Made by a program: the position numbers and the translations under genes. Below, one piece after another: positions 1,658-52,351 of a DNA stretch of 64,000 nt. Numbering within the stretch: position 1 is the stretch's first letter; every line of letters starts with the position of its first letter. The notes under the pieces are model-generated. The model had not been told where the DNA came from. It did no database searches and saw only the letters and a list, made by a program, of their open reading frames with translations. This DNA comes from Candidatus Woesearchaeota archaeon UBA489 (GTDB lineage: Archaea > Nanobdellota > Nanobdellia > SCGC-AAA011-G17 > UBA489): the NCBI GenBank assembly GCA_002505585.1, contig DAVM01000021.1:11660-75659 (forward strand). The letters are read 5' to 3'.

Positions 1658-3175
1658 ATGTATATGGCAGTTATTTTCAGAGGTATTTTCTGGTTAGGCA
1701 TAATTATATCTCTACTCTCTTTATTTGTCCATATAGATGCATTCTTAGCAGTATTAATCCTAGGAACTCTTTGCATACTCTACTCACTATATGAACAACA
1801 CCGTATCAAATCCATCCAAACAATTTCAACACCACAAACAAAACCAACACTACAACCACAAAAAACAGTAGCAAAAACACTCCGTCTACCAGCAAAAACA
1901 ACACAAAAACCGCTCAAAAAAACTCATGCTTCATTTTTCACAAAAGTTCTACAATTTTTCAAAAGAAAAAAACAACCAAAACAAGAAATGATTAAACATG
2001 ACTTCATAAAACACACACCACAATTTGAAAAAATGAAAAAACTCTTCCAAGAAACAGTAACACCAAATAAACCACTTACAAAAGAAACAAAACAACCTTA
2101 TAACTTAAAACAAATAGTAGCAAAAAAATTCACAAAAACACCTAACCAAAAACAAACACAATTCTTTCCTTGGGAAAAAGAAGAACACTACATTCCAACA
2201 GGAGCAGACCACCTACAACCAATAGACCTAGAGAGAGATGAAATAGCACAACAAAAAGATGAAAGATACACAACAGTTCCAATAGGAACAATACAAAAAA
2301 CAAAAGCAACACCAACAACAGAAAGATTATTGGCAACACCAAAAATAGGACTCTTAAAAAAACTCCTCTCTTCGAAGATAACATCAACAAAACAACCCTT
2401 AATAACACCAAACTTAGGGTCAATTAAAGAAATTACTTTACCAAAAGGAGAACCAACACTACAACCAAAAGCAAAAGTAGCTCCATTACCAAAAGAAGGC
2501 ATACAACAGATAGTACACCAAAAAACAACAACAAAAGAAAAAGACTTAGAACAACTCAAAAAATACATTAGAGAATCACAAAAACAAAACTATCCAATAG
2601 AACACATCAAAGCAGCAGTAACAAAAGCAGGCTGGCCAAAAGAAATGATAACACAAGCATTTAAAGCAGAAACAATAACAACCAAAAAGAAAAAATTCAT
2701 AATCCTAGGAGTCATGTTCCTTGTTCTAATACTACTCTTAATAGTTCTAAACACAATGGACCTCTTACTCTTAGATTATCTCTTTGAAACAATACAACAC
2801 GCAAGCATGGGCTTCTACATAGGAGCTAGTGTAGTATTCTTACTCATTATAGGAATTATAATCTTTAAAACAAAAAATATTCTTCAAGAGAAAAAAACAC
2901 ATCATAAAGAAGAAGAAACAAAACATGTACAAGAAATAAAAACAGAACTAGAAGCAAGCAAAGAAGGATTTGAAACAGACTTTGACAGACTCTACAAACT
3001 CATAGAAGAAAAAAAGAAACTAACATTAAGAGAAATAGCAGCAGGCTTTGGCATAAAAAGAAGCAAAGCAGAAGAATGGGGAAAAATATTAAAAGAACAA
3101 GGACTTATAGAATTAAACTATCCAGCAGTAGGAGAACCAGAATTACAATGGAAAAAATTGATGAGTACAAAATAA
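1658..3175 (+). CDS. Lys/Thr/Gln-rich polytopic membrane protein with low-complexity K-T-P-Q repeats and a C-terminal wHTH-like segment; function unknown.
   Basis: N-terminal TM helices and a second TM cluster near aa 350-400. Long low-complexity KTKPTLQPQKT-type stretch. Lies immediately upstream of, and overlaps, the FlaI-like ATPase gene. Confidence 0.45.
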   Translation: MYMAVIFRGIFWLGIIISLLSLFVHIDAFLAVLILGTLCILYSLYEQHRIKSIQTISTPQTKPTLQPQKTVAKTLRLPAKTTQKPLKKTHASFFTKVLQFFKRKKQPKQEMIKHDFIKHTPQFEKMKKLFQETVTPNKPLTKETKQPYNLKQIVAKKFTKTPNQKQTQFFPWEKEEHYIPTGADHLQPIDLERDEIAQQKDERYTTVPIGTIQKTKATPTTERLLATPKIGLLKKLLSSKITSTKQPLITPNLGSIKEITLPKGEPTLQPKAKVAPLPKEGIQQIVHQKTTTKEKDLEQLKKYIRESQKQNYPIEHIKAAVTKAGWPKEMITQAFKAETITTKKKKFIILGVMFLVLILLLIVLNTMDLLLLDYLFETIQHASMGFYIGASVVFLLIIGIIIFKTKNILQEKKTHHKEEETKHVQEIKTELEASKEGFETDFDRLYKLIEEKKKLTLREIAAGFGIKRSKAEEWGKILKEQGLIELNYPAVGEPELQWKKLMSTK

Positions 3176-4626
3176 AAGCAGACGACTTAATCATTCCAGT
3201 AGCAATACTAGGAGGAAAAGGCATAACAAAACAGTACCACGTCTATATACCAACAATAGCACCAGGAACAAAAGCATTAATGGACTACATAAAACATGGA
3301 CTAGTATCAGAAGTAGCAATAAGCACAAAAGAAATCCTAGACCCAAAAGCAATAAACATACTCAAAGGAAAATTTACTAAAAGAGCAAAAATCTTAATAC
3401 AAGACAAACTACCAAATATTTCACAAGACACAGCAATACTCTTAATAAACATTTTAATGCAAGAAATGTTAGGACTAGGAGACATAGAATACTTATTAGC
3501 AGACGAAAATTTAGAAGAAATAGTAATAACTTCATCAAAGGAACCAATAAGAATCTACCACAAAAAACATGGATGGCTAGAAACAAACATAGCAATAGAA
3601 AACGAAGAAAAAATACTAAATTATGCAAACATCATAGGAAGAAGAGTAGGAAGACAAATCACTACACTAAGTCCACTATTAGATGCACACTTAGTAACAG
3701 GAGACAGAGCAAATGCAGTATTATTTCCCATATGTACAAAAGGACACACCATTACTATCAGAAGATTTGCGAGAGATCCTTGGACTCTAACAGACTTTAT
3801 CAAAAATAAAACAATCAACTCAAAATTATTAGCACTCATATGGCTAGCAATACAATACGAAATGAATGTATTAATAAGTGGAGGAACAGCAAGCGGAAAA
3901 ACAAGTTTCTTGAATATTTGCATGCCCTTTATCCCTAGTAATCACAGAATAGTAAGCATAGAAGATACAAGAGAATTACAACTCCCAAAATACCTCTATT
4001 GGTGCCCACTCACAGTAAGACAACCAAACCCAGAAGGAAAAGGAGAAGTAAACATGCTTGACTTACTCATTAACTCCCTACGTATGAGACCTGACAGGAT
4101 AATATTAGGAGAAATGAGAAGAAAAGACCAAGCAGCAGTACTATTCGAAGCAATGCACACAGGACACTCAGTATGTGCAACAGTACACGCAGACTCAGTA
4201 GCAGAAACCATAGAAAGACTAGTTAATCCACCCATAGAAGTACCAAAAAATCTTCTTTTAGGAGTAAATTTAAATGTAGTAATGTTTAGAGACAGAAGGA
4301 GAGGATTAAGAAGAGTGTTCCAAATAGGAGAATTCTTACCAACAATGGAAGAAGGAACAACCAATATTAAACCACACATCCTTTACAGATGGAAACCAGC
4401 AACAGACGAAATGGTAGAACACTCAACATCAGCAAGACTTTTTGAAGAATTAAGCAGACATACAGGAATGACCTTAAGCCAAATAGAAAAAGATTTGATG
4501 AAGAAAAAAGCTATACTCGATTGGATGGTTAAAAACAACATAAGACATGTTGATCAAGTAGGAGAACTCATCAAGAACTATTACTTAGATCCTGACTCAA
4601 TACTTGAGAAAGTAGGAGGGGTTTAA
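3148..4626 (+). CDS. Type II/IV secretion-system ATPase of the FlaI/TadA/VirB11 superfamily; the pilus or archaellum-type assembly ATPase.
   Basis: Walker A LISGGTASGKTSFLN, Asp box IVSIEDTRELQL, Walker B/His box RPDRIILGEMRRKD...HTGHSVCATVHA. The likely start is MEKIDEYKIK at 3148, internal to listed ORF 3076..4626. Confidence 0.85.
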   Translation: MEKIDEYKIKADDLIIPVAILGGKGITKQYHVYIPTIAPGTKALMDYIKHGLVSEVAISTKEILDPKAINILKGKFTKRAKILIQDKLPNISQDTAILLINILMQEMLGLGDIEYLLADENLEEIVITSSKEPIRIYHKKHGWLETNIAIENEEKILNYANIIGRRVGRQITTLSPLLDAHLVTGDRANAVLFPICTKGHTITIRRFARDPWTLTDFIKNKTINSKLLALIWLAIQYEMNVLISGGTASGKTSFLNICMPFIPSNHRIVSIEDTRELQLPKYLYWCPLTVRQPNPEGKGEVNMLDLLINSLRMRPDRIILGEMRRKDQAAVLFEAMHTGHSVCATVHADSVAETIERLVNPPIEVPKNLLLGVNLNVVMFRDRRRGLRRVFQIGEFLPTMEEGTTNIKPHILYRWKPATDEMVEHSTSARLFEELSRHTGMTLSQIEKDLMKKKAILDWMVKNNIRHVDQVGELIKNYYLDPDSILEKVGGV

Positions 4627-5505
4627 ATGATAAAAATACCATTTGCTTTTCTTCCACCTAAACTTCTTTATAAATATTCTAAACTTTTTTATGGAATAGC
4701 ACAAAGATTAGAAAAAAGATTCAATTTTTTAACATTACACTTAGAACAAACAGAAGCACACATCAAACCAATAGAATACATAAGTATGTGTTTAGCATCA
4801 CTCACCATATTCTTTGTTTTCATGTTATTTGTAGCTTTAATGGTAGCAACATTTGACATACCATTTCTCATAGGACTCTTAGGAGCAATACTAGTAAGTT
4901 TCTTTGTTTTTTTACAACAAATGGCCTACCCAAAACTAGTAGCCTCAAGAAGAATCAAAGGTATAGAGATAAACTTGTTACCAGCACTCCAAGACATGTA
5001 CATACAACTCAACTCAGGAGTACCACTCTTTAACATACTCATGAACATCTCAACTAGCGATTACGGAGGAGTTTCACTAGAATTTAGTAAAGCAGTGAGA
5101 GAAATAAACGCAGGAAGATCAAACCTAGAAGTGTTTGAACTTATGGCAATCAGAAACCCTAGCATACTTTTTAGAAGAGCACTCTGGCAACTTGCAAGTG
5201 GTATGAAAGAAGGATCAGACATTTCCACACTCATTCACGAAGTAATACAATCAATAGCAGACGAACAAGTCATGCAAATACAAAGATATGGTGGACAACT
5301 AAGCCCACTAGCACTCTTTTATATGCTTATAGCAGTAATTGCACCATCACTAGGCATAACCTTCATCATTATCCTATCATCATTTATAGCACTATCAGAA
5401 TTAGCAACAAAAGCAATCTTTTACGGACTCTTAATAGTAACCATATTTTTCCAACTCATGTTCTTAGGAATGATTAAAACAAGAAGACCAACATTAATGA
5501 ACTAA
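4627..5505 (+). CDS. TadC/FlaJ-like polytopic membrane protein (T2SS-F domain), first half of a split pilus platform.
   Basis: T2SSF-like segment LPALQDMYIQLNSGVPLFNILMNIS...AVREINAGRSNLEVFELMA flanked by TM helices. SD-like GGAGGG lies 8 nt upstream. Directly follows the ATPase gene. Confidence 0.75.
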   Translation: MIKIPFAFLPPKLLYKYSKLFYGIAQRLEKRFNFLTLHLEQTEAHIKPIEYISMCLASLTIFFVFMLFVALMVATFDIPFLIGLLGAILVSFFVFLQQMAYPKLVASRRIKGIEINLLPALQDMYIQLNSGVPLFNILMNISTSDYGGVSLEFSKAVREINAGRSNLEVFELMAIRNPSILFRRALWQLASGMKEGSDISTLIHEVIQSIADEQVMQIQRYGGQLSPLALFYMLIAVIAPSLGITFIIILSSFIALSELATKAIFYGLLIVTIFFQLMFLGMIKTRRPTLMN

Positions 5506-22079: not shown

Positions 22080-22988
22080 ATAGCCTGTAAATCTTGTGAA
22101 AAAAAACCAGTATATGTTAGTCAAGGAGGGACAAAACTCTGCAAAGAAGACTACCTCCACTACTTTGAAAAAAAAGTACTAAAAACCATAAGACAACATA
22201 ACCTCTTAGGAAAGAAAGAAAAAGTAATCTGTGCACTCTCAGGAGGAAAAGATAGCGTAACAGTAGCACATATAGTAAATAAAATACTGAAAGAAAGAAA
22301 AGAAAAATTAACAGCACTCTTAATAGATGAAGGAATACATGGTTATAGAGCTTCAACAATAGAAGATGCTAAAAAGTTTTGCAAAGAAGAAGGAATAGAA
22401 TTAAAAATAATCTCTTTTAAACAACGATTTGGATTTACTTTAGATGAGTTTATAAAAAAACACAAAATAAATCCTTGCTCAGTATGTGGAGTAATAAGAA
22501 GATATTTGATGAACAAAGGAGCAAGAGAAGCAAAAGCAACACTCTTGTTAACAGGACATAACTTAGATGACGAAACACAAAGTTTGTTAATGAATCAATT
22601 TAAAGGAAACATGCAACTTAGTGCAAAATTAGGACCAATATCAGGAGCAGTTAGTCATGAAAAATTTGTGAAGAAAGTAAAACCCTTATATTATATGACA
22701 GAAAAAGAAGTAGCGTTGTATGCATTTTTAAAAAAGTTTCCAGTACAATTTGTAGAATGCCCAAATAGCCCAGGAACATTTAGGCAACAAGTAGGAGAAT
22801 TATTAAATAATTTAGAAAACAGTTATCCAGGGACGAAGCAAGGAATTTTGAAATCCTTTTTAACAATTTTGCCAGACTTAAAAAAACAATATGAGAATCA
22901 AACAATAGCAAATTGTGAACTTTGTGGAGAACCAGCAGCACAAAAACAGTGCAAAGTATGTATCTTATTAGAAAAAGAGAAAAAATAA
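22080..22988 (+). CDS. NcsA/TtuA/Ncs6-family tRNA 2-thiouridine synthase (PP-loop ATPase with Zn fingers). There is no canonical start codon for the N-terminal domain.
   Basis: N-terminal CxxC...C (KIACKSCEKKP...LCKED). PP-loop SGGKDS. Central PCSVCG and C-terminal CELCGEP...CKVC. The frame is open from 22065, just after a TAG, and the first ATG is at 22506, about 140 codons downstream. The 5' end is assigned to the ATA at 22080. Confidence 0.8.
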   Translation: MACKSCEKKPVYVSQGGTKLCKEDYLHYFEKKVLKTIRQHNLLGKKEKVICALSGGKDSVTVAHIVNKILKERKEKLTALLIDEGIHGYRASTIEDAKKFCKEEGIELKIISFKQRFGFTLDEFIKKHKINPCSVCGVIRRYLMNKGAREAKATLLLTGHNLDDETQSLLMNQFKGNMQLSAKLGPISGAVSHEKFVKKVKPLYYMTEKEVALYAFLKKFPVQFVECPNSPGTFRQQVGELLNNLENSYPGTKQGILKSFLTILPDLKKQYENQTIANCELCGEPAAQKQCKVCILLEKEKK

Positions 22989-23072: not shown

Positions 23073-24404
23073 ATGACAACTACAATTACAGAACCAAAAC
23101 TACTCGAAGAACCACAAGAGAGGCCCCATAGGACGGTTATTCTAGATGGTGAAATGACTCATAAAGATGTTGCAAGAGAACTAAGAAACTCACCAGAACC
23201 AAATACTATAACACACCTTTGGACAAGAGATGAAGTAACACTCCTCAGAGAATTTTCTCCCTCAACCTATCATAAACTAGCACAAGATCCAACATTAGGA
23301 TTAGAATCTTTCACAGACATTGAACATCGCCTTCCACAACTAGCACTTCAATTACAAACAGAAGTAAGCCATAGATCAGCAACAATGGATTGTTATGTTT
23401 TAGGCCCAAAAAAAGGTGATGAGGGTACTTTAAGAAGTAAATTCCATCATCTTAGTAGACTCACAACACTCTTTGACCTTCTAAATATACCACATCCAGG
23501 AGCTTTATCTCCAGATTTATTAGAAGGAACTCCTGATCTTAGAGAATTATTTATTGAAACAAGACTAAGATATGCAGAACTTTTGCAAAACATGCCAGAA
23601 TGGGCAAACCCAGAAATAACAACTTCAACAGAAACAAAAACAGCAAACTTTAGAAAACTCCCAATAGAACAACAAAGAAGATTTGGTTATGTAGATCACA
23701 TTAAAAGATTGGTAGGGGAAAAAAATTTAGTAGCAGTAGCGGTATATGGATCAGCAACACAAACAACAGAGAACGGAGATTATGACAATTATGTAGTTAT
23801 ACAAGATGGAAGCTTGCCCACTGTATGTCATAGACTCCTTGATCAAGACTTTGTTAATCAAGAAGATGGCAAACATGTAGGAATGAACATCTTGCAAGAA
23901 GGAGCGTTTAGTAAATTTATTCGTATGAACCAAGACTCATATGAAAGAAGAGTAACAGGAATTCTGCTTTATGGAAGCCTACAATTTCCAATATTATCTG
24001 ATGAAGAAGATATAGAAAGAGGAATTAGTTCAACAATGTTAAGGAGAAGAACATTAGGAGGGGCAGCAACACATCTTACTCATGATCCAGAAAGATTACT
24101 AGGAAGACCAGATCTCTTTCAATTCTTCCAAAAAACCTTGCGTAGTATGGAAAAAGCTGGATTAAACTTAAGAGAAGGAATATTTTCAAGAAGTAATGCA
24201 ACATTAGATGCAAGACTTGAACAAGATGGTATACATATAAGACCTTACAAAGATGATTTAGCATATCTTCATGATGGTATTTATGATGCACTAGCAGCAG
24301 CAACCCATTTAACACATAAATATTTTGCAGGAACAGAATTTAAAGGAAATTTTTTGGAAGTAACAACACATGATACTCCATCGACTAAACCTTTAGAAGT
24401 TTAA
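23073..24404 (+). CDS. Hypothetical 443-aa protein with a nucleotidyltransferase-like GS...DxD motif and atypical composition.
   Basis: AVAVYGSATQTTENGDYDNYVVI (GS-x9-DxD). Codon usage is richer in G/C- and T-ending codons than host genes. Confidence 0.5.
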   Translation: MTTTITEPKLLEEPQERPHRTVILDGEMTHKDVARELRNSPEPNTITHLWTRDEVTLLREFSPSTYHKLAQDPTLGLESFTDIEHRLPQLALQLQTEVSHRSATMDCYVLGPKKGDEGTLRSKFHHLSRLTTLFDLLNIPHPGALSPDLLEGTPDLRELFIETRLRYAELLQNMPEWANPEITTSTETKTANFRKLPIEQQRRFGYVDHIKRLVGEKNLVAVAVYGSATQTTENGDYDNYVVIQDGSLPTVCHRLLDQDFVNQEDGKHVGMNILQEGAFSKFIRMNQDSYERRVTGILLYGSLQFPILSDEEDIERGISSTMLRRRTLGGAATHLTHDPERLLGRPDLFQFFQKTLRSMEKAGLNLREGIFSRSNATLDARLEQDGIHIRPYKDDLAYLHDGIYDALAAATHLTHKYFAGTEFKGNFLEVTTHDTPSTKPLEV

Positions 24405-24689
24405 TTACCAACCCATTAAAGTTTTAACTTCTTTACTAGGTTCCCAAGGAGGATCAAAAACTAATTCAACTTCAGGATCCTTAAAACCAATTTCAGTTAA
24501 CCCTTTCTTAACTTCCAACATCATGTGTTGAGCCATAGGACAAAAAGGAGTAGTTAAAGTCATCTTAATATGTACTTTATCCTTATCAATAGCAATATCA
24601 TAAATAAAACCCAAAGTCCAAATATCTAAACCAATCTCAGGGTCTTTAATCTTTTGTAAAGCACCAATAGCATCTTCTTTCTTTAACAT
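24405..24689 (-). CDS. DUF59/MIP18-family (SufT-like) Fe-S cluster assembly protein.
   Basis: Conserved ...DPEIGLDIW.LG.IYDI... and TPFCP motif. 94 aa. Confidence 0.75.
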   Translation of the reverse strand: MLKKEDAIGALQKIKDPEIGLDIWTLGFIYDIAIDKDKVHIKMTLTTPFCPMAQHMMLEVKKGLTEIGFKDPEVELVFDPPWEPSKEVKTLMGW

Positions 24690-24694
24690 TTTTA

Positions 24695-26503
24695 TTACCC
24701 AAAATATTTTTCTCTATAAAACCTAATAAGTTCTTCAACAGCAGGAATCACTTCAGGACTACCAATACCAACTTTTAATTTCTTTTGTACTTTTTCCAAA
24801 GTATCAGCACCTTCTAAGACAGCTTCTTCAATATCTTTATCAGTAACTTTAGTAGTTGGATCAACAATTCGAGCAGATTCAACAATAATACGATCAGTTT
24901 GCTCAGATTTACGAAAAAAATCGTTAATAGCAGAACGTAAAGCTTTGTCTCCTAAAACAGAACAATGGAACTTCTTAGCTGGAAGACCACCTAAACGCTC
25001 CATAATATCTTGAGGTTTTAATACTAAAGCATCATTAATCTTCATACCACCATTTTCTGAAATCATAACAGATAACATAGAAGTAGAGCCAATAGCTGAA
25101 GCACAACCAAAAGTTTGCCATTTACATTCTGTAATTCTATCTTGTTCTTTATCAACCTTAATCCACATCTTCATAGCATCACCACAATTATGAAGAGTGA
25201 AAGCATCACTAACATAAGAATGTGTTTTAGCTACTTCTAGATTATGTAAACGTCCACTAAATTGAGATTTTTCAACTTTCCTAATAGGCATATAAAAGTA
25301 GTTTTTGTCAAACCAAGAATGTTTAGCAATCCTTGATACTTTAGGATAAGAAAACTTAACTTTTAGTAGCTTACTCATTTTCTTTAAAGCTTCGTAATCA
25401 CCAACATGAATTCTATAACACTCAGCATGATTTACTCCTTTCACAACTTTAGCTTCTTCAAAATAAATAGAATGTTCAATCTTTTGACGAAGTAATAACA
25501 CTTTTAATTCTTGAGCTAAAATCCAAGAAGCAGTAGCATATTCAGCTCTAGGTTTTTTCTTTTCTAAATCAATATATCCATCACTATGCCAAACACCATA
25601 CAAAAAACTTTTTTGTAACTCAGGTTCTAAAAAAATGATAAATTCTGGGATTTTCTTGTTATAAGAAAGAGTGCCACAATTTTTTCTTAAATATCTAGCA
25701 AGATGAATACTGTTTGTAGTTACATCAATCCTATTTCTATCTTCTCTTTTTTTAACATAAGTATCTAACTTGAATATCTTTTTAAGAAGTTTGATAACGT
25801 CCTCAACAAATTTTTCTTCAGTGATGCCGAAGGTAAAACCAATTTCTCCTTTACGCGTATGTCCTTCGGCAACAAAATAACCAAATAAACGTAAAAGATC
25901 TTTAGTTACTTTAATCTTTGTAGGGATTGTCTTACTTTTATAATCAAAGTTTTTCTTAGTAACAGGAATTTCAATATATTCAACTTCTTTTACTTCTTTA
26001 GGAATAGGATAAGGACAAATATCTCCTTTTTGTAAGTTACCAGCATGCACCCAAGAGACAGGAAGCTTTCTTTTGTATTTATTATGTGCCCAAGAACCTT
26101 TTTCAGGGATTTGCATAGCATAGACTAAATGATCAGGAGTTAGAACAACATCTCCAAATTGGTTTTTTACTTTGACTATTTTTCCATCATACTTGGGATG
26201 ATAGAATTTAGTTATTTTATTATAAGAACCATCATGAGATAATACTTTGTGTCCTTTAGTAAGATTATCCATTTGTTGCACATCAAAATTAACATGAATC
26301 AAAGTTTTTCCTTCAGTACAAGCAGGACTTCCAACCATACCAATACCATCAGCTTTGTAAGTAGCAACTTCTTCTTCAGTTTTGAAAATATTTTTAGGAT
26401 TAAAAAAGTGTTCACGAACTGTTGGAGTGTAGAACCATTTTCTTGCATCTACCATAGACTTTACATCCTCATGAGTTACAGGTTGTATTTTTGGTTTTTC
26501 CAT
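24695..26503 (-). CDS. iscU: IscU/NifU-like Fe-S scaffold interrupted by a 378-aa intein.
   Basis: Exteins carry the IscU motifs (GMVGSPA | CGDAMKMW..., then ...HCSVLGD). The intein starts with Cys and ends TLHN followed by Cys. Confidence 0.85.
   Translation of the reverse strand: MEKPKIQPVTHEDVKSMVDARKWFYTPTVREHFFNPKNIFKTEEEVATYKADGIGMVGSPACTEGKTLIHVNFDVQQMDNLTKGHKVLSHDGSYNKITKFYHPKYDGKIVKVKNQFGDVVLTPDHLVYAMQIPEKGSWAHNKYKRKLPVSWVHAGNLQKGDICPYPIPKEVKEVEYIEIPVTKKNFDYKSKTIPTKIKVTKDLLRLFGYFVAEGHTRKGEIGFTFGITEEKFVEDVIKLLKKIFKLDTYVKKREDRNRIDVTTNSIHLARYLRKNCGTLSYNKKIPEFIIFLEPELQKSFLYGVWHSDGYIDLEKKKPRAEYATASWILAQELKVLLLRQKIEHSIYFEEAKVVKGVNHAECYRIHVGDYEALKKMSKLLKVKFSYPKVSRIAKHSWFDKNYFYMPIRKVEKSQFSGRLHNLEVAKTHSYVSDAFTLHNCGDAMKMWIKVDKEQDRITECKWQTFGCASAIGSTSMLSVMISENGGMKINDALVLKPQDIMERLGGLPAKKFHCSVLGDKALRSAINDFFRKSEQTDRIIVESARIVDPTTKVTDKDIEEAVLEGADTLEKVQKKLKVGIGSPEVIPAVEELIRFYREKYFG
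25187..26320 (-). mobile_element. Intein with a LAGLIDADG homing-endonuclease domain, inserted in iscU immediately before the cluster-ligand Cys of the ACGD motif.
   Basis: Block A CTEGKTLIHVN. Block B TPDHLVY. LAGLIDADG-like LFGYFVAEGH and LYGVWHSDGYID. Blocks F/G ...HSYVSDAFTLHN followed by +1 Cys. Confidence 0.8.
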
Positions 26504-27678
26504 TATGCGTACAACTCCGGTCTAACATTTACAGGTGAAATAGCTCTTAATTTTTTAATAACATCTGGTAAAACTTTTAGTACGTGATCCATACCTTCTT
26601 TAGTAGAAGACTTTCCTAAAGTAAAACGAACACTTCCATGAGCAGTCTCAAAAGGAACACCTAAAGCTAAAATAACATGAGAAGGATCTAAAGTTTTAGA
26701 AGTACAAGCAGAACCTGTTGAAACACAAATACCATATTCATTTAAGTATAAAATTAAAGCTTCACCTTCAATATCCATGAAAGAAATATTAACATTATTA
26801 GGTAAACGTTTAGTTGCATGACCATTTAATCTAGTCTTAGGAATAGTTTTGAGAATGTTAGCAATTAAATAATCACGAAGCCTAGTCAACCTAATATTTT
26901 CAGTTTCTTTCTCTTCTTGAGCAAGTTCTAAAGCTTTAGTCAAACCTCTAATAGCAGGAACATCTTCAGTGCCAGAACGCAAATCCCTCTCTTGTCCACC
27001 ACCATGAATAACAGGCTTTAATTGCGTACCTTGCTTCACAAACAAAGCACCAACACCCTTAGGACCATAGAGTTTACTTCCATTAATAGACAATAAATCA
27101 ACATTTAAATTTTCAACATTAATATCTAAAGCACCAGCAGCCTGACAAGCATCAGAATGAAATAAAACCTTTTTAGCCTTACAAATTTCTCCAATCTCTT
27201 TAATAGGATTAATAGTACCAATTTCATTATTAGCATACATAATAGAAACTAAAATAGTCTTATCAGTAATAGCAGCTTCAACATCTTTAGGATTAACAAT
27301 ACCATCCTTACCAACAGGCAAGAAAGTAACATTATACCCTTCTTTTTGTAAAAATTCACAAGAATGAAGAACAGCATGATGCTCAGCTTTCGTAGTAATA
27401 ATATGATTCCCTTTATGTTTGTAACCTTTAGCAACACCAAGAATAGCTAAGTTAACACTTTCAGTACCAGAACCAGTAAAAATAACTTCCAAAGGTTTGG
27501 AATGAAAAATAGTAGCAACTCTAGCGCGAGCATCTTCAATAGCATCTTTAGCTTCTAAACCAAAAGAATGAAAACTTCCAGGATTACCAAAAACTTCAGA
27601 ATAATATTTATCCATCTCTTGTTTTACTCTAGGATCAACAGGAGTAGTAGCAGCGTGGTCTAAGTAAACAGTTTTCAT
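26503..27678 (-). CDS. iscS: Cysteine desulfurase (IscS/NifS class).
   Basis: TVYLDHAATTPVDPRV N-terminus. PLP-Lys region SINGSKLYGPKGVGALFV. Active-site loop SGSACTS. Start chosen at MKTVYLDH. Confidence 0.85.
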   Translation of the reverse strand: MKTVYLDHAATTPVDPRVKQEMDKYYSEVFGNPGSFHSFGLEAKDAIEDARARVATIFHSKPLEVIFTGSGTESVNLAILGVAKGYKHKGNHIITTKAEHHAVLHSCEFLQKEGYNVTFLPVGKDGIVNPKDVEAAITDKTILVSIMYANNEIGTINPIKEIGEICKAKKVLFHSDACQAAGALDINVENLNVDLLSINGSKLYGPKGVGALFVKQGTQLKPVIHGGGQERDLRSGTEDVPAIRGLTKALELAQEEKETENIRLTRLRDYLIANILKTIPKTRLNGHATKRLPNNVNISFMDIEGEALILYLNEYGICVSTGSACTSKTLDPSHVILALGVPFETAHGSVRFTLGKSSTKEGMDHVLKVLPDVIKKLRAISPVNVRPELYA

Positions 27679-28058
27679 TTTACTACACCACCAAAACAAC
27701 CAATTAAATTAGTATGACACTCATCAGGAATTTGAGAAATTTTTTTATGTACTTCACAAATAACACCAGAAGTTCTAGCCAGATGGATTAACCTTTGTGT
27801 TTCACGTAATAAAGAAATCTTATCATTAATCAAGATAGTAGATTTTTTCACTTCTTTTTTTAACTCTTCAGGAAGAGAAATTTGAGCACCACGTTTTTTA
27901 TTAATATATTGACTAACAGTAGCATCTTCAATATGAAGGATTTGAGCAATCTCCTTTTGCTTTAAACCTTGTTCTTTGAAAGCAAGAGCTAATTGACGCT
28001 TAAGAGCAGGAATAATATAATGTACTTCAATTTCTTGGGGATAAAGCAATTGTTTCAT
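27675..28058 (-). CDS. Small HTH transcription regulator with a C-terminal Cys/His cluster, first gene of the isc-like operon.
   Basis: HTH-like KQKEIAQILHIEDATVSQYINKK. C-terminal CEVHKK...DECHTNLIGC. Overlaps iscS by 4 nt. Start chosen at the internal Met at 28058. Confidence 0.55.
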   Translation of the reverse strand: MKQLLYPQEIEVHYIIPALKRQLALAFKEQGLKQKEIAQILHIEDATVSQYINKKRGAQISLPEELKKEVKKSTILINDKISLLRETQRLIHLARTSGVICEVHKKISQIPDECHTNLIGCFGGVVK

Positions 28059-42251: not shown

Positions 42252-42339
42252 AGGGGTCATAGCATAATCCGGTTAGTGTTGCCGGCTCCAAAAAATTTAG
42301 GAGTCACCGGTAGATCCAGGTTCGAATCCTGGTGACCCC
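42252..42339 (+). tRNA. tRNA-Trp (anticodon CCA) with a ~14-nt intron at the canonical 37/38 position.
   Basis: Acceptor GGGGTCA / TGACCCC with discriminator A. T-arm CCAGG-TTCGAAT-CCTGG. Anticodon stem GCCGG / CCGGT. Loop CTCCAAA. Intron at 42291-42304. Confidence 0.8.
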
Positions 42340-42391
42340 ATATAATCCTTCTAGAAATATTTATAAACCTACACTATTCCTTAGTAGTCCT

Positions 42392-45113: not shown

Positions 45114-45287
45114 TTGTATAAAAAATACATTCTAAAAAGAGGAAAGAGAATAGGACCATATTTCTACACTAGTGCTCGCTTAAAAGATGGCAGAGTAAAA
45201 ACAGTCTACTTAGGTAGTAATGAAAAACTTGCACGTCAGAAAGAAAGAACACAACAACTCATTAAGGTGGTGAAAAGGAAAGGATGA
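45114..45287 (+). CDS. Putative small basic protein (TTG start) translationally coupled to the giant gene by an ATGA overlap.
   Basis: 57 codons, K/R-rich (LYKKYILKRGKRIGPYFY...). The stop TGA overlaps the ATG of the 2355-aa ORF. Confidence 0.3.
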   Translation: MYKKYILKRGKRIGPYFYTSARLKDGRVKTVYLGSNEKLARQKERTQQLIKVVKRKG

Positions 45288-48200
45288 AACACCAACTTAC
45301 ACTTATTGATAAAGAAAGAGAATTACGAAGCCTTATCTTACAAGCAGAAACACACAAAAAACAAATAAGAAGAGTAATCAGACAAATAACAGAACACTAT
45401 AAACACGGAAAAATAACACATGAAGAATACAAAACAAGAATACAAGAAGCATTTGGTCAACAAACACCAACAGCACTCATAAAACATTATGATACTTGTA
45501 TAAAACAATACCAACAAGAACTAAAACAAAACAAACAACTAACAACCCAACAAAAAACAAATACACCACTTTACTTAATTGCTTTCCTCTTACTCATAGG
45601 AGGAATAGTTTTCTCCAACACAGACTTCACAGGATTCTTCATAGCAGAAGGAACACCACACAAAACAACAGTAAACCTGATAACAAACGAAGACATAACA
45701 TACACCTTACCTCAACCAATAGAAGGAAAAATTACAGCATTAGCAATTAGTGGAACAATAGAAGGAGATGGAGAAGTACAAATTTATTTAGAAAATATAG
45801 ACAACCTCCTTTATGACAGTACAAAAAAAGAAGCAAAAAAAGGACTCTTTGGCAAACTCACAGGATTAGTAACTGCACCAACAAACCAAACACCCCAAAA
45901 TAAACTACAACTCTATGACGAAGATAGAAATATTCTAGAAGCAGAAGAAACAACCACAAAAACAAGCTTAGTAACAAAACCAACAACCATACTACAAATA
46001 CAAAAAATAACATTCCAAAACTTAAAAGGGAAAAAACTAGGCATTAGCACCAAAGCAAGAGGAATAGTAGCACCACAAGGAAAGAAATTCAACACTATTT
46101 ATTCCTTTGACACAACAGAACTCACCTTTGACGAAGCAACAGCACAAATTACAGCAACAGGCAACGAACTCTACAAATGTAATATCTGGGACTTTAGTCT
46201 AAGCATATGTTTAAGCACATGGGAACAATTTACAACAATTGAACAAACAAAAGCATATAAAATCACCTTACCAAAAGGAACAATAGCATTCGCAGAAGCA
46301 AATACCATAAATACAACAACTAGCAAAAAACCACAAACATTCCCACTCCAACCACTAACAGTAGCAGTTAAACAATTCAACCTAGGAGAAATAGCAAAAT
46401 TTGACATACTAGTCAAAAACACACAAAAGACCACTACACCTGCACAAGCACAAATACAATTAACAAACAACAAAACAACCATTGCAAACTTCAACAGCAC
46501 CAAAGAAAACATAACACAAAACCAACCAAAAGCACTATTAGCGTATTGGGACACAACAAACACAGAATCAGGAACTTATGAAGGAACACTTAAACTAATA
46601 GCAAATAAAGAAACTAAAGAATATCCAATCAAAGTAATAGTAACAGAAAAAACAATACACACAGAAATCATAGGCATAACAGGAAAAGTAGTTACTAAAA
46701 CACAAGAACAACCAAAGAAAAACCAAAAAAAGAAAACATTTATAGCAGAATGCAAAGATGCATGCACACTTGAAGGACTTAACAAAACACCACACAAACT
46801 TATAATTATTATCAAAGATGCACTACTCAACCTTACTAATATAGATTACACTATAAAAACAAATGGAACAAATATAACAATAAACAAAACAAAAATAAAA
46901 TTCCAATTAGACCAAAAACAACACAAGAAAAAAATAAAAAAACTCAAAATAGACAAAACAAAAATAACTCACAGAGATGAAAAGAAGAAAATACACAAAA
47001 TCCAAAGACATGCATCAAAAAACATTACAGATGGAGGCCTTGGTTGGGAAAGAGAATGCATTGATAGCATTTGCAAACACACCATCTATCAGAATGTTGA
47101 ACATTATCATAAAGAAGACAGTAATTTTGGCGCAATAAAAAACGCATTAACAGATCAAAATTGTGCAATAGACGAAGAATTATGTATTAAGAGCAAAAAA
47201 CACAAAATAAGCTTCAAAGAAAAAGCAACACAAGAAGCAACAATTAACCTAACAATAAACAATGCCACCATCTCCTTTACACCACTACAACTAAGACACA
47301 GTATGGGAGAAGAACAAACAATCCTAAGTAGTGCAAATCCAGTCACAGGAGAAGGAACAGACAATATCTTCACCTATAATAATATTTTCGGCCAAGGAAT
47401 CAATATGAAACTAACTTATTTAGCAGACCAAATAAAAGAAGAAATTATACTTACAGACAATAGTTTCCTAGGAAATATACCCCTAACAAATACAACTAAC
47501 ACAACAATAACTATAGACTATATAGTAACAAAATCACCAGAACTACAATGGAAAATAGGAAATGTAATACAAACACCACTTGCAATAGATGAACAAATAC
47601 AAACACCACAAGCACTACAACTTCAAGACACAAAAGGAACAAAATTTATCCTTCCAAAACCAATAGCATATAGTGGAAAAGAAACACAACCACTTAGTTA
47701 TAGTCTTACACAAACAGACAAACAAGAAATACTAAGTATAGAAATACCACTCACTTACTTACAAACAACACCTTATCCAATAATCATAGATCCAACAATA
47801 GTACTTGATTATGCTAGTGTTCTCTTTGACGGTTATGTAACATCTGGTATCTCAGGTGGAAGTTACACAAGAGCAAGTAGTCCGGACCCAGTCTTTGTAG
47901 GCCAAACAGATCAAGGAGGTCCATTTGATACTTACAGAGCAGACATAGACTGGGATATCTCATCAGTACCAACAAACGCATTTGTTACACAACTCACATT
48001 AGACCTCTACGTAAAACAAATAGGTAACCCAGATACCACAATTTATGTAAACCAAATGAGTGGCAACAGCACAACCTATCCAGATGATGATTCAGGAAAC
48101 ACTGATTTTTATACTGATATGCAAGACACCAATTATGCTTCTATAATGTTAGGTGGTGCACAAGCATATGAAGCAATAGATTTCACAGCAGACCAATCAT

Positions 48201-51200
48201 TATTAGATTTTCACAACCAACTCGAAAACAAATCAACATGGTTCTCAGTTGGACTAAGCACTGATGAAAGTGGAAGTGGAGGAGCAACACCCAGCAAATT
48301 TACAGGAGCAACTAGTGGTAACCCAGATGAAATACCACAATTGACAATAGTATATGATTTACCACCACCAACAATAACACTCAACGCACCAGCAAACAAC
48401 TCCTATTATAGTGCCTTTATCAACGAAACATTAAACGCAACAATCAAAGACAACGAACCAACAATACAAGAAGTAATCTATTACGGAGGAACAACACTAC
48501 CACCAAGAGCAGAAGACATACTATTCATCCAATACAATGTAACCAACGGAACACAATTAGCAGTTAATTGGACAACAGAAGTATATAAAGCAGACGGAGA
48601 CACACAACTCCTACTACACTTCGACAACAGAAGTGAATTTGGAGAAAACGACACAATAGTTTTCGACTTTTCTAACCAAACAAATAATGGAACTATAACA
48701 GATGCAGGAGGACTACTAAATCTTCAGGAAACAGACGGAAAACTAGGAGGAGCAGTCAATTTCCAACCAATCCCAGGAGATGGAGGAAAAAGCAACATAA
48801 CCTTTGGAGATCAAGATGAACTCATAGGAGCAAATCATACTTACATGATGTGGCTTAAAATAAAAAACCAAGCAGAAGCAGCAACAATATTTACTAAATA
48901 CAATGCAGATGAAAACGAAGGAATGAAAGTTAATTATAGCAACGCTGGAGCAACATTAGGCATTACAACAGACACAAAAATGGTAGAAATAAAAAATTTC
49001 TTTGACATAGACCAATATACACATTTAGCAATAACAATAGATACAGTAGGAGAAATGAAAGTATACAAAAATGGCATCTTCAATAGCTCAACAACAGGAC
49101 ATGAAATAACACCAAATACCATACCATTTGATATAGTTTTTACAGACGAAAGCACACCAATACCAATAGATGTAGCAGACTTAGATGAATTTGTCATCCT
49201 TAACAGAACACTCAGTGCATGGGAAATATTAGATGCATACAGATTGAAAGGAGGAGTCTACTATTGGTATGTAAATGCAACAGACGCAAGCGGTAAACCA
49301 ACTGGTATGAATATGTCAGAAATAAGAAAGCTAACAATAAACCATCCACCAGAAATAACCCTAAACTTACCCTTAAACAACACACTCTTTGCAGGAGTAG
49401 GAGCAATCATTCTTAACAGCACAATTATTGAAAGAGAATTGGACACAGTAATAGTAGAAATTTTTGGAGGAAATACAACAACACCTGACATGGAAGACCT
49501 TTTGTATAAAAATATAAGTGTAGCAAATGGTACAACAATACTCTATAATTGGACAGCACCAATACTAAAAGCCTTACCAGAAACAGCACTCCTTTACCAC
49601 TTTGATAACAGGAGTGAATTCGGAGAACACGCAACATCCATCTATGACTTTACAGGACTAGGCCACACAGGAACAATACAAGGAGATGGACTCATAAATT
49701 TATCCAATGAAATCTTTGCAGGACACTTAGAACTAGACGGAACAGGTGACAGAGTATTAGTATCTAATTGCGGTTATGAATGCATACAACTCAGAGATGC
49801 AACATTCATCATGTGGTTAAACCCTAATGATGAATCAACTATAGGAGGGCTTACAGGATCTTTAGCTACAGTTGCATCACTAGGGTTTGGAATATACAAA
49901 AATACTGATGATCTAGCAGTAGTAGGAGATGGGAATGTAGGAGTAGCAGATGTAGACTTCTTTACAGGAGAAACAGGAAATTGGATACACCTAGCAGCAA
50001 CAACCCTAGCCAATGGCACCTCAAAAATCTACAAAAACGGAGTACTACAAGAAACAGGAGTAATAAATGCTATTTTTAACGTATTCATCTTTGGGTGGAG
50101 TTATTGGGTAGGAGAAGTAGACGCAGTACAAGCAAGTTTTCTCTTTGATGGGTCAATAGATGAATTTACTATAATCAACAGAACATTAAGTGACGCAGAG
50201 ATACAAGAACGTTACCAATTAGGTAATGGAACTTATTATTGGTTTGTCAATGCAACAGATAACTTTAGTATTGGTCACAATACACAATCACAAACAAGAC
50301 AATTCGTCATTTCAGACACAGTAAGAATAACAGCAGCAGAAATTAACGAAAGTACACCGGTAGAATCAAATACTTTTGTTAAAGTAAATGCAAGTATAGA
50401 ATCAGAAGTAAACACTCTGAACACAACTTATGTTACAGCAACACCACCACTCTCTAACGAATTTAATATAACACTACACCAAAACGGCAATGAACACTTT
50501 AATGTAACAGTAAAACTCAACGAATCAGGAAACTGGACATTCACCTTCCACGCAAATGATAGCGAAGGAAATGAAGCAACAGCAGTAAAAGCAATAGAAC
50601 AAAGTGCTACTGGATACCCATACATTACAGTAGCATGGAATGGAAGTGATAGCTTTGGCTATAGAGGAAAAGATATACACGCAATAAGCGGACCAAGTTA
50701 CTTTTATACAAACATAAGCAGACCAGAAATAGCACTAGGACTATCAGATGATGGCCTATCAGTAGCCACCCCAATAGGATTTGATTTTAAATTTTATAAT
50801 AACCTCTCAGCAACACATATAAGAATTTGTAATAACGGATTTATTAGTTTTGATGTCTCTATTGACAGCTGTCCTTTTAATAATGTAGCACTAGGTACAG
50901 ATGGAGATCCAGAAGAAATTGCAGCAGTATTCTGGGGTGACCTTGCAGAAGGAGGAGATTTATACAATGAAACAAGAGGAACAGCACCAAACAGAATATT
51001 TATTGTACAATGGGATAGAAACTTCTTCGGAGGAGGATCAACTGACCGTATTGATGCACAAATAGTTCTTTACGAAAACTCAAGTGATATACAATTTAAT
51101 TATTTAGATACAGTCTCAAGCACAGGTGGTTCTTTAGGTGCTGGAGCATCAATAGGAATAGAAAATAGAGGGTCAGACTTCTTCATACAAAGATCCTTAA

Positions 51201-52351
51201 ATCAAGCAATACTTTATAACAGCTATGCATTGAGATTTTATTATCCAAACTTAGCCAACACAACAGCAGTAGTAACAACACCAAACCCAGCAAACACAAC
51301 AGACACACTCAACTGTACTTTTACAGTAACAGACATAGACACAGAAGAAGGACTGTCAGCAAACATAACATTCTACAACAGAAGCACAGACGGCATACAC
51401 TTTACAGTTTATGAAAGCTATAACATCTCAGTAACAAACGGAACAGAATTCACTCAAGATATGACAGCAACATCACAAGTCAAAAATGAAGTGTGGAAAT
51501 GTGGCATAGTACCTTTTGATGGAATTAAAGACGGAACACCAAGAAACTCTTCAACAGTTACTATAGTTAACAGTGTACCAGGAACACCAACACTAGGAGG
51601 ACCAGTAGATAATTATCAAACAACAGAGTTAGCACTAAACTTTAATTGGACTAACATTACAGATGCAGATGGGGATCCAGTAAACTACACTTTTAACTTA
51701 ACTTGTTATTCAACAGCAGGAGGAGGCTGTACAGCACCAGGAGATGATAGAATCTTTAATATAACAACAAATAGCACATCATCAGATGGAGATTTAAACT
51801 TCAGAATTGATGACGGATTTTATTATAACTGGACAGTTCTAGCACATGATGGAACAAACCAAAGCACTTATGCACAAGCAAGAACCTTTAATATAAGTGT
51901 CTTAGTAGCCATATCTTTCATTAGCGGAAGTAATGTAGACTTCCACACTTTAGGATTAGGACTAAGTAATCGAACTATAGAATCAGTAGAAGATTCAGGA
52001 CCAAACGCATTTGAATTACAGAATGATGGAAATAGTTTCATAGAAGTAAACATAACAGCAATAGGCAGTGATCTTTTTTCAGCATCACCAATACCATCAG
52101 ATGCATTCCTTTTCAAAGGAACTGTACCAATAGCAGCACCAATACCAACCCCAATTAACCAAACAAGATCAATTTCAAGTTATACTAATGTAACTAGAAC
52201 AAACCAAACAGTACTAGCAGGATTCAATTACTCTGATGCAACAGACGAAGCACTCGTTCACGTTAAAATCACAGTACCATTAGATGAACCAAGTGGCACT
52301 AAAGGAGCAACATTAGTACTAACAGGATATTACTTTGGAGGAAGAACTTAA
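45284..52351 (+). CDS. Giant (2355 aa) N-terminally anchored surface protein with two LamG-like (concanavalin-type) domains, internal repeats and very many N-glycosylation sequons.
   Basis: Cytoplasmic N-terminal ~95 aa then TM PLYLIAFLLLIGGIVF. Two LamG_3-like segments (LLLHFDNRSEFGEN... and ALLYHFDNRSEFGEH...IMWLNPND). Repeated YYW[YF]VNATD. Dozens of N-x-S/T sites. Confidence 0.8.
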   Translation: MKHQLTLIDKERELRSLILQAETHKKQIRRVIRQITEHYKHGKITHEEYKTRIQEAFGQQTPTALIKHYDTCIKQYQQELKQNKQLTTQQKTNTPLYLIAFLLLIGGIVFSNTDFTGFFIAEGTPHKTTVNLITNEDITYTLPQPIEGKITALAISGTIEGDGEVQIYLENIDNLLYDSTKKEAKKGLFGKLTGLVTAPTNQTPQNKLQLYDEDRNILEAEETTTKTSLVTKPTTILQIQKITFQNLKGKKLGISTKARGIVAPQGKKFNTIYSFDTTELTFDEATAQITATGNELYKCNIWDFSLSICLSTWEQFTTIEQTKAYKITLPKGTIAFAEANTINTTTSKKPQTFPLQPLTVAVKQFNLGEIAKFDILVKNTQKTTTPAQAQIQLTNNKTTIANFNSTKENITQNQPKALLAYWDTTNTESGTYEGTLKLIANKETKEYPIKVIVTEKTIHTEIIGITGKVVTKTQEQPKKNQKKKTFIAECKDACTLEGLNKTPHKLIIIIKDALLNLTNIDYTIKTNGTNITINKTKIKFQLDQKQHKKKIKKLKIDKTKITHRDEKKKIHKIQRHASKNITDGGLGWERECIDSICKHTIYQNVEHYHKEDSNFGAIKNALTDQNCAIDEELCIKSKKHKISFKEKATQEATINLTINNATISFTPLQLRHSMGEEQTILSSANPVTGEGTDNIFTYNNIFGQGINMKLTYLADQIKEEIILTDNSFLGNIPLTNTTNTTITIDYIVTKSPELQWKIGNVIQTPLAIDEQIQTPQALQLQDTKGTKFILPKPIAYSGKETQPLSYSLTQTDKQEILSIEIPLTYLQTTPYPIIIDPTIVLDYASVLFDGYVTSGISGGSYTRASSPDPVFVGQTDQGGPFDTYRADIDWDISSVPTNAFVTQLTLDLYVKQIGNPDTTIYVNQMSGNSTTYPDDDSGNTDFYTDMQDTNYASIMLGGAQAYEAIDFTADQSLLDFHNQLENKSTWFSVGLSTDESGSGGATPSKFTGATSGNPDEIPQLTIVYDLPPPTITLNAPANNSYYSAFINETLNATIKDNEPTIQEVIYYGGTTLPPRAEDILFIQYNVTNGTQLAVNWTTEVYKADGDTQLLLHFDNRSEFGENDTIVFDFSNQTNNGTITDAGGLLNLQETDGKLGGAVNFQPIPGDGGKSNITFGDQDELIGANHTYMMWLKIKNQAEAATIFTKYNADENEGMKVNYSNAGATLGITTDTKMVEIKNFFDIDQYTHLAITIDTVGEMKVYKNGIFNSSTTGHEITPNTIPFDIVFTDESTPIPIDVADLDEFVILNRTLSAWEILDAYRLKGGVYYWYVNATDASGKPTGMNMSEIRKLTINHPPEITLNLPLNNTLFAGVGAIILNSTIIERELDTVIVEIFGGNTTTPDMEDLLYKNISVANGTTILYNWTAPILKALPETALLYHFDNRSEFGEHATSIYDFTGLGHTGTIQGDGLINLSNEIFAGHLELDGTGDRVLVSNCGYECIQLRDATFIMWLNPNDESTIGGLTGSLATVASLGFGIYKNTDDLAVVGDGNVGVADVDFFTGETGNWIHLAATTLANGTSKIYKNGVLQETGVINAIFNVFIFGWSYWVGEVDAVQASFLFDGSIDEFTIINRTLSDAEIQERYQLGNGTYYWFVNATDNFSIGHNTQSQTRQFVISDTVRITAAEINESTPVESNTFVKVNASIESEVNTLNTTYVTATPPLSNEFNITLHQNGNEHFNVTVKLNESGNWTFTFHANDSEGNEATAVKAIEQSATGYPYITVAWNGSDSFGYRGKDIHAISGPSYFYTNISRPEIALGLSDDGLSVATPIGFDFKFYNNLSATHIRICNNGFISFDVSIDSCPFNNVALGTDGDPEEIAAVFWGDLAEGGDLYNETRGTAPNRIFIVQWDRNFFGGGSTDRIDAQIVLYENSSDIQFNYLDTVSSTGGSLGAGASIGIENRGSDFFIQRSLNQAILYNSYALRFYYPNLANTTAVVTTPNPANTTDTLNCTFTVTDIDTEEGLSANITFYNRSTDGIHFTVYESYNISVTNGTEFTQDMTATSQVKNEVWKCGIVPFDGIKDGTPRNSSTVTIVNSVPGTPTLGGPVDNYQTTELALNFNWTNITDADGDPVNYTFNLTCYSTAGGGCTAPGDDRIFNITTNSTSSDGDLNFRIDDGFYYNWTVLAHDGTNQSTYAQARTFNISVLVAISFISGSNVDFHTLGLGLSNRTIESVEDSGPNAFELQNDGNSFIEVNITAIGSDLFSASPIPSDAFLFKGTVPIAAPIPTPINQTRSISSYTNVTRTNQTVLAGFNYSDATDEALVHVKITVPLDEPSGTKGATLVLTGYYFGGRT

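Follow-up and report, generated by a model that had tools for sequence, protein, structure and literature searches.

The locus analyzed here raises the question of how an archaeon obtains its iron-sulfur (Fe-S) cluster assembly scaffold from a gene that encodes this scaffold in two widely separated parts. The window, i.e., the whole stretch of 64,000 nucleotides from contig DAVM01000021.1 of Candidatus Woesearchaeota archaeon UBA489 (GenBank assembly GCA_002505585.1), contains an iscU/nifU-like gene whose 602-aa product is interrupted by a 378-aa element. The initial annotation, made from the letters of the window, read this open reading frame (ORF) as IscU exteins split at positions 25187-26320 by a LAGLIDADG intein, and these coordinates are exact. 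It is very probable that the element is a canonical class-1 intein with a LAGLIDADG homing endonuclease, set in frame into an iscU gene of the NifU-N type in a marine DPANN (Woesearchaeota-like) archaeon. The parts of the gene, in window coordinates, are the following.

24695..26503, minus strand: iscU/nifU-like precursor gene, 602 aa plus stop codon, with matches to Pfam NifU_N, LAGLIDADG_3 and Intein_splicing.
26321..26503, minus strand: N-extein, 61 aa, with the end ...ADGIGMVGSPA, aligning to the IscU residues that precede the ACGD motif.
25187..26320, minus strand: intein, 378 aa, protein residues 62-439, from Cys1 to His-Asn378, with boundaries common to the complete family members.
24698..25186, minus strand: C-extein, 163 aa, residues 440-602, starting with CGDAMKMWIKV and comprising the remaining IscU domain (C467, H513, C514) and a BFD-like tail.
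25184..25186, minus strand: codon of Cys+1 (protein C440); C440, G441 and D442 are invariant and align to the CGD of 4eb5_C and 9wfy_D.

The ORF of 1809 nt is intact, and the frame is kept through both intein junctions. When residues 1-61 and 440-602 are joined, the resulting 224-aa protein matches the Pfam profile NifU_N with a score of 127.9 bits (cutoff 22; E-value 3.4e-37) over profile positions 2-125 of 127; in the unspliced protein, the Pfam match spans only the C-terminal three quarters of this profile. The spliced extein aligns with the A. fulgidus IscU (4eb5_C) at an E-value of 4e-29, ungapped at the junction (...GTVGNPVCGDLM...), and, likewise ungapped, with the Aquifex IscU (2z7e and 9wfy), which has ...GNPACGDAM... 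at this point. Therefore, the cysteine that follows the intein is the cysteine of the conserved ACGD motif, so that both initial claims, of contiguous exteins with a precise insertion at ACGD and of a +1 nucleophile identical to the conserved ACGD cysteine, are borne out. In alignment A1, which comprises 73 full-length homologues of the precursor and to which all residue counts out of 73 refer, C440, D442, C467, H513 and C514 are invariant, and they align to the solved IscU structures, among which 2z7e has Ala in the Asp column of CGD. C440 is the equivalent of E. coli IscU Cys37, a ligand of the [2Fe-2S] cluster and one of three ligand cysteines, and D442 that of Asp39; the E. coli cluster site is made up of C37, D39, C63, H105 and C106.

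Like the intein-free IscU/NifU-N scaffolds (A. fulgidus 4eb5, Aquifex 2z7e, E. coli, and human ISCU), to which it aligns end to end with E-values from 1e-22 to 4e-29, the spliced product from the window contains the ligand set Cys, Asp, Cys, and His-Cys; it differs from them in that they lack the intein and in having an extra N-terminal extension of ~24 residues and a Cys-less BFD-like tail of ~65 residues. The NCBIfam equivalog models score the unspliced precursor well under their cutoffs (TIGR01999, IscU, 89 against 192; TIGR03419, NifU_clost, 104 against 188; TIGR02000, NifU proper, 122 against 273), and, as judged from these scores of the precursor, the protein is a NifU-N-type scaffold of an uncurated subfamily. 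The C-terminal tail (window 24698-24890) gives a match of 24.4 bits, just below the cutoff, to the BFD-like [2Fe-2S] domain and contains no cysteines; if it adopts a BFD-like fold, it would therefore be unable to bind a cluster.

All the motif strings quoted in the initial annotation are present in the ORF, namely CTEGKTLIHVN (block A), TPDHLVY (block B), two LAGLIDADG motifs, and TLHN followed by CGDAMKMW; in the translation, the intein starts with CTEGKTLIHVN and finishes with SDAFTLHN. The splicing domain is made up of two lobes.

25934..26320, minus strand: N-terminal Hint lobe, residues 62-190, rich in beta-strands in the AlphaFold2 model and holding block A (Cys62) and block B.
26129..26140, minus strand: block B, T-P-D-H, residues 122-125; H125 is invariant and T122 is Thr in 68 of the 73 sequences.
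25187..25315, minus strand: C-terminal Hint lobe, residues 397-439, with block F (HNLEVAKTHSY) and block G (TLHN).

Cys62, His125, His438, Asn439 and Cys440 are each found in 73 of 73 sequences. Block F contains an equally invariant N421 and H428, present in 64 of 73; N421 is presumably the equivalent of the block-F Asp, having been matched by eye to the motif of the RecA intein. In the profile search that had been proposed as a check, the intein alone matches Pfam LAGLIDADG_3 with an E-value of 6e-15, and the full 602-aa precursor scores above the cutoff of NCBIfam TIGR01443 (intein_Cterm), with the match at residues 421-440. Pfam matches of the whole protein also include LAGLIDADG_3, Intein_splicing, Hom_end, and Hint, and those to NCBIfam include partial matches to intein-containing Tes, GyrA, ribonucleotide reductase, DnaB and RecA models. 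A sequence search of the PDB with the intein alone yields a single match, PI-PkoII (1e-9). The AlphaFold2 model of the whole precursor has a mean predicted local distance difference test score (pLDDT) of 88.9 and a predicted template modelling score (pTM) of 0.77, and a Foldseek search of the PDB with this model identifies intein structures in all of the first 16 matches, the best being the endonuclease-containing inteins TliVMA (7qsu, 6.7e-22), PhoVMA, PI-SceI, PI-PkoII and PI-PfuI. Further down, the output includes IscU (2z7e, 4eb5), matched by the C-extein, and free-standing LAGLIDADG enzymes, matched by the middle domain. With Cys1, the T-x-x-H of block B, His-Asn followed by Cys+1, the Hint fold in the model, contiguous exteins and empty-site homologues, the element shows each testable feature of sequence and structure of a class-1 LAGLIDADG intein, and the block-F Asp alone is atypical.

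The middle part of the intein is the endonuclease domain.

25349..25918, minus strand: LAGLIDADG homing-endonuclease domain, residues 196-385, identified with Pfam LAGLIDADG_3 and Hom_end, an alpha/beta repeat in the model, and Foldseek.
25862..25891, minus strand: LAGLIDADG motif 1, RLFGYFVAEG, with the acidic residue E213; G208 and G214 are invariant, and position 213 is E in 71 of 73 and D in 2 of 73 sequences.
25577..25606, minus strand: LAGLIDADG motif 2, FLYGVWHSDG, with the acidic residue D308, which is D in 71 of 73 sequences; G309 is invariant.
25583-25585, minus strand: codon of S307 (intein S246), in LAGLIDADG motif 2, directly before the catalytic Asp.

Lys283 is invariant as well, the secondary structure of the model shows the repeated alpha-beta-beta-alpha-beta-beta-alpha fold over residues 196-385, and Foldseek matches this domain to I-DmoI, I-Tsp061I, I-SceI and PI-SceI. 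The mean pairwise identity across the family is 46% in the endonuclease domain vs 42% and 48% in the splicing lobes; conservation as high as that of the splicing lobes argues that the endonuclease domain is still under selection.

The initial annotation proposed a survey of relatives for intein-free alleles, and such alleles exist. Among the matches listed, the closest to the spliced extein are the intein-free proteins P0125 (89% identity, 225 aa) and P0126 (88%, 224 aa), which are encoded in loci L002 and L001, respectively, the latter on a 909-kb contig, with the same order of genes for a helix-turn-helix (HTH) protein, NifS, IscU and DUF59. The wider neighborhood of L001 also has in common with the window a surface protein, glutaredoxin, a methyltransferase, a conserved uncharacterized protein of ~440 aa, a PP-loop ATPase and ThiS. 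The extein DNA of the empty alleles is 80-82% identical to that of the window, and the site is precisely empty: GGTATGGTTGGATCTCCNGCN/TGTGGNGATGCTATG, where the slash marks the insertion point, corresponds to GGTATGGTTGGATCTCCAGCA/TGTGGTGATGCTATG in the iscU gene of L001.

In the 602-aa translation product, the intein separates Ala61 from Cys440 and thereby divides the IscU fold. If this precursor follows the established class-1 intein pathway, the Hint domain would drive an N-S acyl shift at Ala61-Cys62, the thiol of Cys440 would attack the resulting thioester (trans-thioesterification), and Asn439 would cyclize, releasing the intein. An S-N shift would then produce a normal peptide bond and hence a 224-aa IscU with ...VGSPACGDAM..., in which the thiol of the splicing nucleophile would go on to serve as one of the three cluster-ligating cysteines. 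The freed 378-aa intein would cut empty iscU alleles across GGTATGGTTGGATCTCCNGCN/TGTGGNGATGCTATG and would be copied in by repair, and such homing would account for a patchy distribution over lineages. Because the 61 N-terminal residues and the ligand cysteine lie 378 residues apart, and because splicing requires this cysteine as its nucleophile, the scaffold presumably cannot function beforehand. The initial claim that Fe-S biogenesis depends on prior protein splicing is thus a sound inference for the scaffold encoded in the window, but was stated too broadly, given that a second scaffold, e.g., SufBC, might be encoded beyond the 64 kb; a search of the 64-kb window itself detected neither a second iscU nor a second intein.

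Several observations have to be set against the interpretation of the element as an active homing intein. The block-F position is occupied by Asn where many studied inteins have Asp; being invariant in the family, the Asn is evidently tolerated. The Pfam Intein_splicing match to the intein (1.6e-5, 25 bits) falls below the gathering threshold of 35.8. Both splicing and DNA cleavage are predicted activities throughout the IscU intein family, and the prediction of endonuclease activity draws on the patchy distribution and on the conserved residues. At the position next to the second catalytic Asp, 72 of 73 sequences have Gly and the window copy alone has Ser (S307), a substitution that might weaken its endonuclease. 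The guanine-plus-cytosine (GC) content is 29.8% in the intein and 33.8% in the exteins, and these similar values give no indication of a recent arrival; recent transfer as judged by GC content was considered and rejected as a line of argument, the difference from the exteins and from the window (33.0%) being too small for either side. Finally, the intein of L004 (4001-5146, Woesearchaeota RIFCSPHIGHO2_02_FULL_29_10) contains an in-frame stop codon, with the gene call P0040 restarting within the intein, and that of L062 contains a frameshift near its C-terminal junction. These are either decaying copies, in which IscU would be inactivated, or sequencing errors.

The window copy belongs to a large family. 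A search with the intein only returned 131 clusters, 120 of them listed, and 119 of these 120 carry NifU_N besides LAGLIDADG_3, the exception being P0053, a 385-aa fragment; the junctions G[SN]Px/C...HN/CGD are found in every complete IscU-intein sequence. When one genome per GTDB species was scanned with an alignment of the intein only, 92 relatives were detected; 80 of these were retrieved, and ~76 of the 80 are located in IscU at the same site. The taxon labels of these relatives include, among DPANN archaea, Woese-, Pace-, Nano- and Iainarchaeota/Diapherotrites, Micrarchaeota and Altiarchaeota; among other archaea, Thermoplasmata/Methanomassiliicoccus and Methanomethylicota; among Asgard archaea, Sifarchaeum, Borrarchaeum and Atabeyarchaeia; and, among bacteria, Patescibacteria, i.e., the Candidate Phyla Radiation or CPR (Sungii-, Nealson- and Gribaldobacteria, Parcubacteria), Omnitrophota and Elusimicrobia. 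Carriers account for a small minority of the IscU genes, with ~130 intein clusters vs, at the least, more than 7,900 IscU clusters.

The histories of the intein and its host protein do not coincide. The intein closest to that of the window is 68% identical to it, and the extein in which it resides only 59%; among intein-bearing exteins, the highest identity is 77%, vs up to 89% for the empty alleles; and the intein and extein identities across labelled genomes correlate with r=0.35. This incongruence is what the gain and loss of a homing element would be expected to produce. The intein of the Woesearchaeota locus L013 is 68-73% identical to those of L012, L014 and L015 (Parcubacteria, Nealsonbacteria and Patescibacteria), with extein identity of 67-78%, and the intein-free IscU proteins of CPR bacteria are ~70% identical to the extein of the window. 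Such likeness of archaeal and bacterial iscU reflects either cross-domain transfer among ultrasmall organisms or binning error, the taxonomic labels being those of metagenome bins, several of which were produced automatically, so that mis-binning is not separable from real transfer.

The precursor gene is part of an operon, the other genes of which are the following.

27675..28058, minus strand: small HTH protein, 127 aa from Met45 of the listed ORF, with weak matches to HTH_3 and HTH_23.
26503..27678, minus strand: NifS-type cysteine desulfurase, 391 aa from ATG (TIGR03402, 5.9e-161); the protein has 391 aa in L083 as well.
24405..24689, minus strand: DUF59/SufT-like FeS_assembly_P protein, 94 aa (Pfam PF01883, 2e-16), starting 5 nt past the iscU stop codon.

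The HTH gene and the start of nifS share 4 nt, and the TAA stop codon of nifS overlaps the ATG of iscU by one base (cgcaTAATGgaa). The operon had been described as DUF59-iscU-iscS-regulator; the tight HTH-nifS-iscU-DUF59 order, with the desulfurase directly upstream of iscU, agrees with this description, but the desulfurase is of the NifS type rather than IscS proper, as indicated by its score with TIGR03402 (NifS; 535.5 bits, cutoff 530.75). The HTH gene is conserved in the first position of the operon in L001, L002 and L083, and its product is the putative operon regulator. The C-terminal part of this protein contains three Cys and two His within 21 residues (CEVHKKISQIPDECHTNLIGC), and no match was obtained with the IscR and SufR models; it may be a candidate for a metal- or cluster-sensing regulator.

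Other genes of the window are mentioned here for completeness. A 443-aa protein (23073-24404, plus strand) without a Pfam match is encoded at the same place beside the operon in L001 (438 aa) and in L083. The PP-loop ATPase gene (22080-22988, plus strand), which lies beside a ThiS/SAMP-like gene, is intact; its interpretation as a truncated pseudogene at 22506..22988 was rejected given that the frame reads through from 22080. The start position of this gene is ATA, compared with ATG in the L001 homologue, which is why the ORF list shows only the last 160 aa. A tRNA-Gly(GCC) of 88 nt (42253-42340, plus strand) has extra sequence past the anticodon region and probably carries an archaeal-type intron; together with Woesearchaeota as the closest named relatives, it points to a marine DPANN archaeon as the most likely source of the window. 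A giant ORF of 2355 aa (45284-52351, plus strand), with Laminin_G_3 domains as the sole Pfam match, probably encodes one of the surface proteins commonly found in DPANN genomes.

Of the alternatives to a plain homing intein, the one that survives best extends this interpretation rather than replacing it: the intein might be retained as a conditional switch, in which Cys1 and Cys+1 sense redox state or metals (e.g., via a disulfide or Zn/Fe) and so throttle the maturation of the scaffold, and with it Fe-S biogenesis, after translation. This appears unlikely, even if both cysteines are invariant, 16 of the 73 family members have another Cys three residues before the intein C-terminus (AFCLHN), and the intein is persistent and intact over very distant lineages. 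Against it stand the patchy distribution with closest relatives that lack the intein, the conserved endonuclease residues, and the incongruent histories of intein and extein, all of which a purely selfish homing element predicts; furthermore, no regulation-specific sequence feature was found in the intein, and Cys1/Cys+1 is the commonest intein configuration. The SufB intein of M. tuberculosis is said, in the title of a reference, to be a sensor of oxidative and nitrosative stress. In a broader proposal, oxidation, Zn/Fe binding or persulfidation at Cys1/Cys+1, of which Cys+1 is both nucleophile and cluster or metal ligand, would stall splicing and tune the scaffold supply to the redox or metal status; the IscU intein would then be more than a parasite and would gate Fe-S biogenesis at the post-translational level in ultrasmall archaea and bacteria that depend on a host. 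This broader proposal is just as doubtful but, if true, would help explain the existence of one intact IscU-intein lineage over DPANN, Asgard, Thermoplasmata, CPR and Omnitrophota.

Considerably less probable is that the insertion is a dead remnant, with the precursor left unspliced, this iscU copy being a pseudogene, and clusters being supplied by another system (e.g., SufBC). The 64 kb of visible genome leave room for another scaffold, a few relatives (L004, L062) have a stop or frameshift in the intein, and the G to S replacement in LAGLIDADG motif 2 is unique to the window copy. However, the ORF is uninterrupted, all splicing residues are present and invariant in the family, the exteins have lost none of the IscU ligands, translational coupling ties the gene into a conserved nifS-iscU-DUF59 operon, and the identical sequence recurs in independent assemblies. 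The remaining alternative, a chimera or assembly artefact that joined an intein fragment to iscU, is refuted by the occurrence of the same 602-aa protein (cluster P0001, to which the window precursor is 100% identical) on 11 contigs from independent assemblies, including the 0.1-0.22 um fraction of Tara Oceans, by more than 120 distinct clusters with the same architecture and junctions, and by the reading frame, which is kept at both junctions.

The IscU site appears to have attracted more than one intein. Mini-inteins of ~159 aa are present in P0148 and P0179 at the same IscU site (GSPA/C...VVKN/CGD; IscU residues ~64-222); they have no endonuclease and end with Lys-Asn, not His-Asn, and their hosts are other Woesearchaeota-like alleles. 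The possibility that these are deletion derivatives of the LAGLIDADG intein was rejected because BLASTP shows no significant similarity between the two (E-values above 0.05). Given this lack of similarity, the site seems, by comparison of the two sequences, to have been invaded twice, by separate intein lineages.

A literature search that took in neither supplementary tables nor intein databases found no paper on inteins of IscU or NifU, and neither protein is mentioned in the main text of a large intein survey (PMC4760082). The names under which the IscU-intein proteins appear in public databases (“iron-sulfur cluster assembly scaffold protein”, “NifU-like protein”) are silent on the intein. 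Thus, the host and the site are apparently undescribed, whereas the mechanism is ordinary and the kind of element is thoroughly known; the general understanding of intein function is left unchanged. What is added to the catalogue of inteins is IscU as a host and a splicing nucleophile that itself is a ligand of a metal cluster. With regard to intein ecology, this is a large family that is widespread in uncultivated archaea and bacteria, and its sister lineage occupies a look-alike P-x/CGD site in a second Fe-S enzyme; the family thus offers a natural case for the study of endonuclease jumps to new targets and of mobile-element movement among ultrasmall symbionts. For annotation, proteins of 500-650 aa should be treated in metabolic reconstructions as precursors of scaffolds of 130-230 aa. 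In protein engineering, a mesophilic Cys1/Cys+1 intein that tolerates an A/CGD junction could be of use, possibly as a test bed for redox- or metal-conditional splicing.

Among the known systems, the well-studied precedent in Fe-S assembly is provided by the SufB inteins of M. tuberculosis (Pps1) and Ferroplasma (PMC8891592). These resemble the IscU intein in being class-1 inteins (Cys1, block-B His, His-Asn and Cys+1) with an intact endonuclease domain, and in interrupting an essential Fe-S assembly protein, so that cluster biogenesis needs splicing (PMC8891592). They differ in that the host is SufB, of the SUF system, rather than an IscU/NifU scaffold, in the insertion site, and in that splicing has been demonstrated experimentally for the SufB intein and is predicted for the IscU intein; no specific sequence relationship between the two was seen. 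Considering this precedent (PMC8891592), the more than 120 IscU-intein clusters, and the location of the nearest relatives in metabolic enzymes, the initial description of an Fe-S scaffold as an unusual intein host was overstated.

The structurally characterized inteins TliVMA and PhoVMA (7qsu, 7qss, 7qst), PI-SceI (1vde, 1ef0), PI-PkoII (2cw7) and PI-PfuI (1dq3) share with the IscU intein the combination of Hint and LAGLIDADG domains (Foldseek, 6.7e-22 to 7e-14), but have only 12-18% sequence identity to it and reside in V-ATPase, DNA polymerase and ribonucleotide reductase. The intein of the tetraether lipid synthase Tes (NF045703) is the best intein-related NCBIfam match of the precursor (9e-21), covering the endonuclease and the C-terminal splicing region; the host of this intein is a radical-SAM protein, and the score is far under the family cutoff, so that the similarity is at the level of the intein only.

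An exhaustive search of 1.84 billion representatives recovered 5,503 sequences related to the intein, including 114 with E-values of 1e-30 or below, and the nearest hosts after IscU are metabolic enzymes, not replication proteins. These include UDP-glucose dehydrogenase (P0259, P0271; junction GGS/C...HN/CLPKD), thioredoxin-reductase-like flavoproteins (P0266, P0275, P0285, P0292; in one example, the intein lies inside the C-A-T/C motif of a pyridine-nucleotide disulfide oxidoreductase), and UDP-GlcNAc 2-epimerase (P0281, P0290). These related inteins appear to be located at functional cysteines of their hosts. The closest of all are the inteins in the beta subunit of 2-oxoacid:ferredoxin oxidoreductase (OFOR).

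OFOR beta inteins: L073, 3947-5890; L080 (ARMAN-5), 2788-4809; L081; proteins P0254, P0274 and P0286.

A rough neighbor-joining tree, which lacks support values, groups the IscU inteins in a single clade, with the OFOR-beta inteins as the sister group; a literature search found no paper describing the latter. Their host is a TPP-binding (thiamine pyrophosphate) enzyme (PF02775, PF12367), unlike IscU, but the inteins are 33-40% identical to the IscU intein and have the same Cys1...HN/CGD ends (complete junction WCPG/C...HN/CGD). The target site, WCPG/CGD in OFOR-beta (TGGTGTCCAGGA/TGTGGTGAC) and SPA/CGD in IscU, has P-x/C-G-D in common, and 14 of 21 core nucleotides match by manual count. As far as these sequences can tell, the likeness is consistent with a past jump of the intein between look-alike sites in the two hosts.

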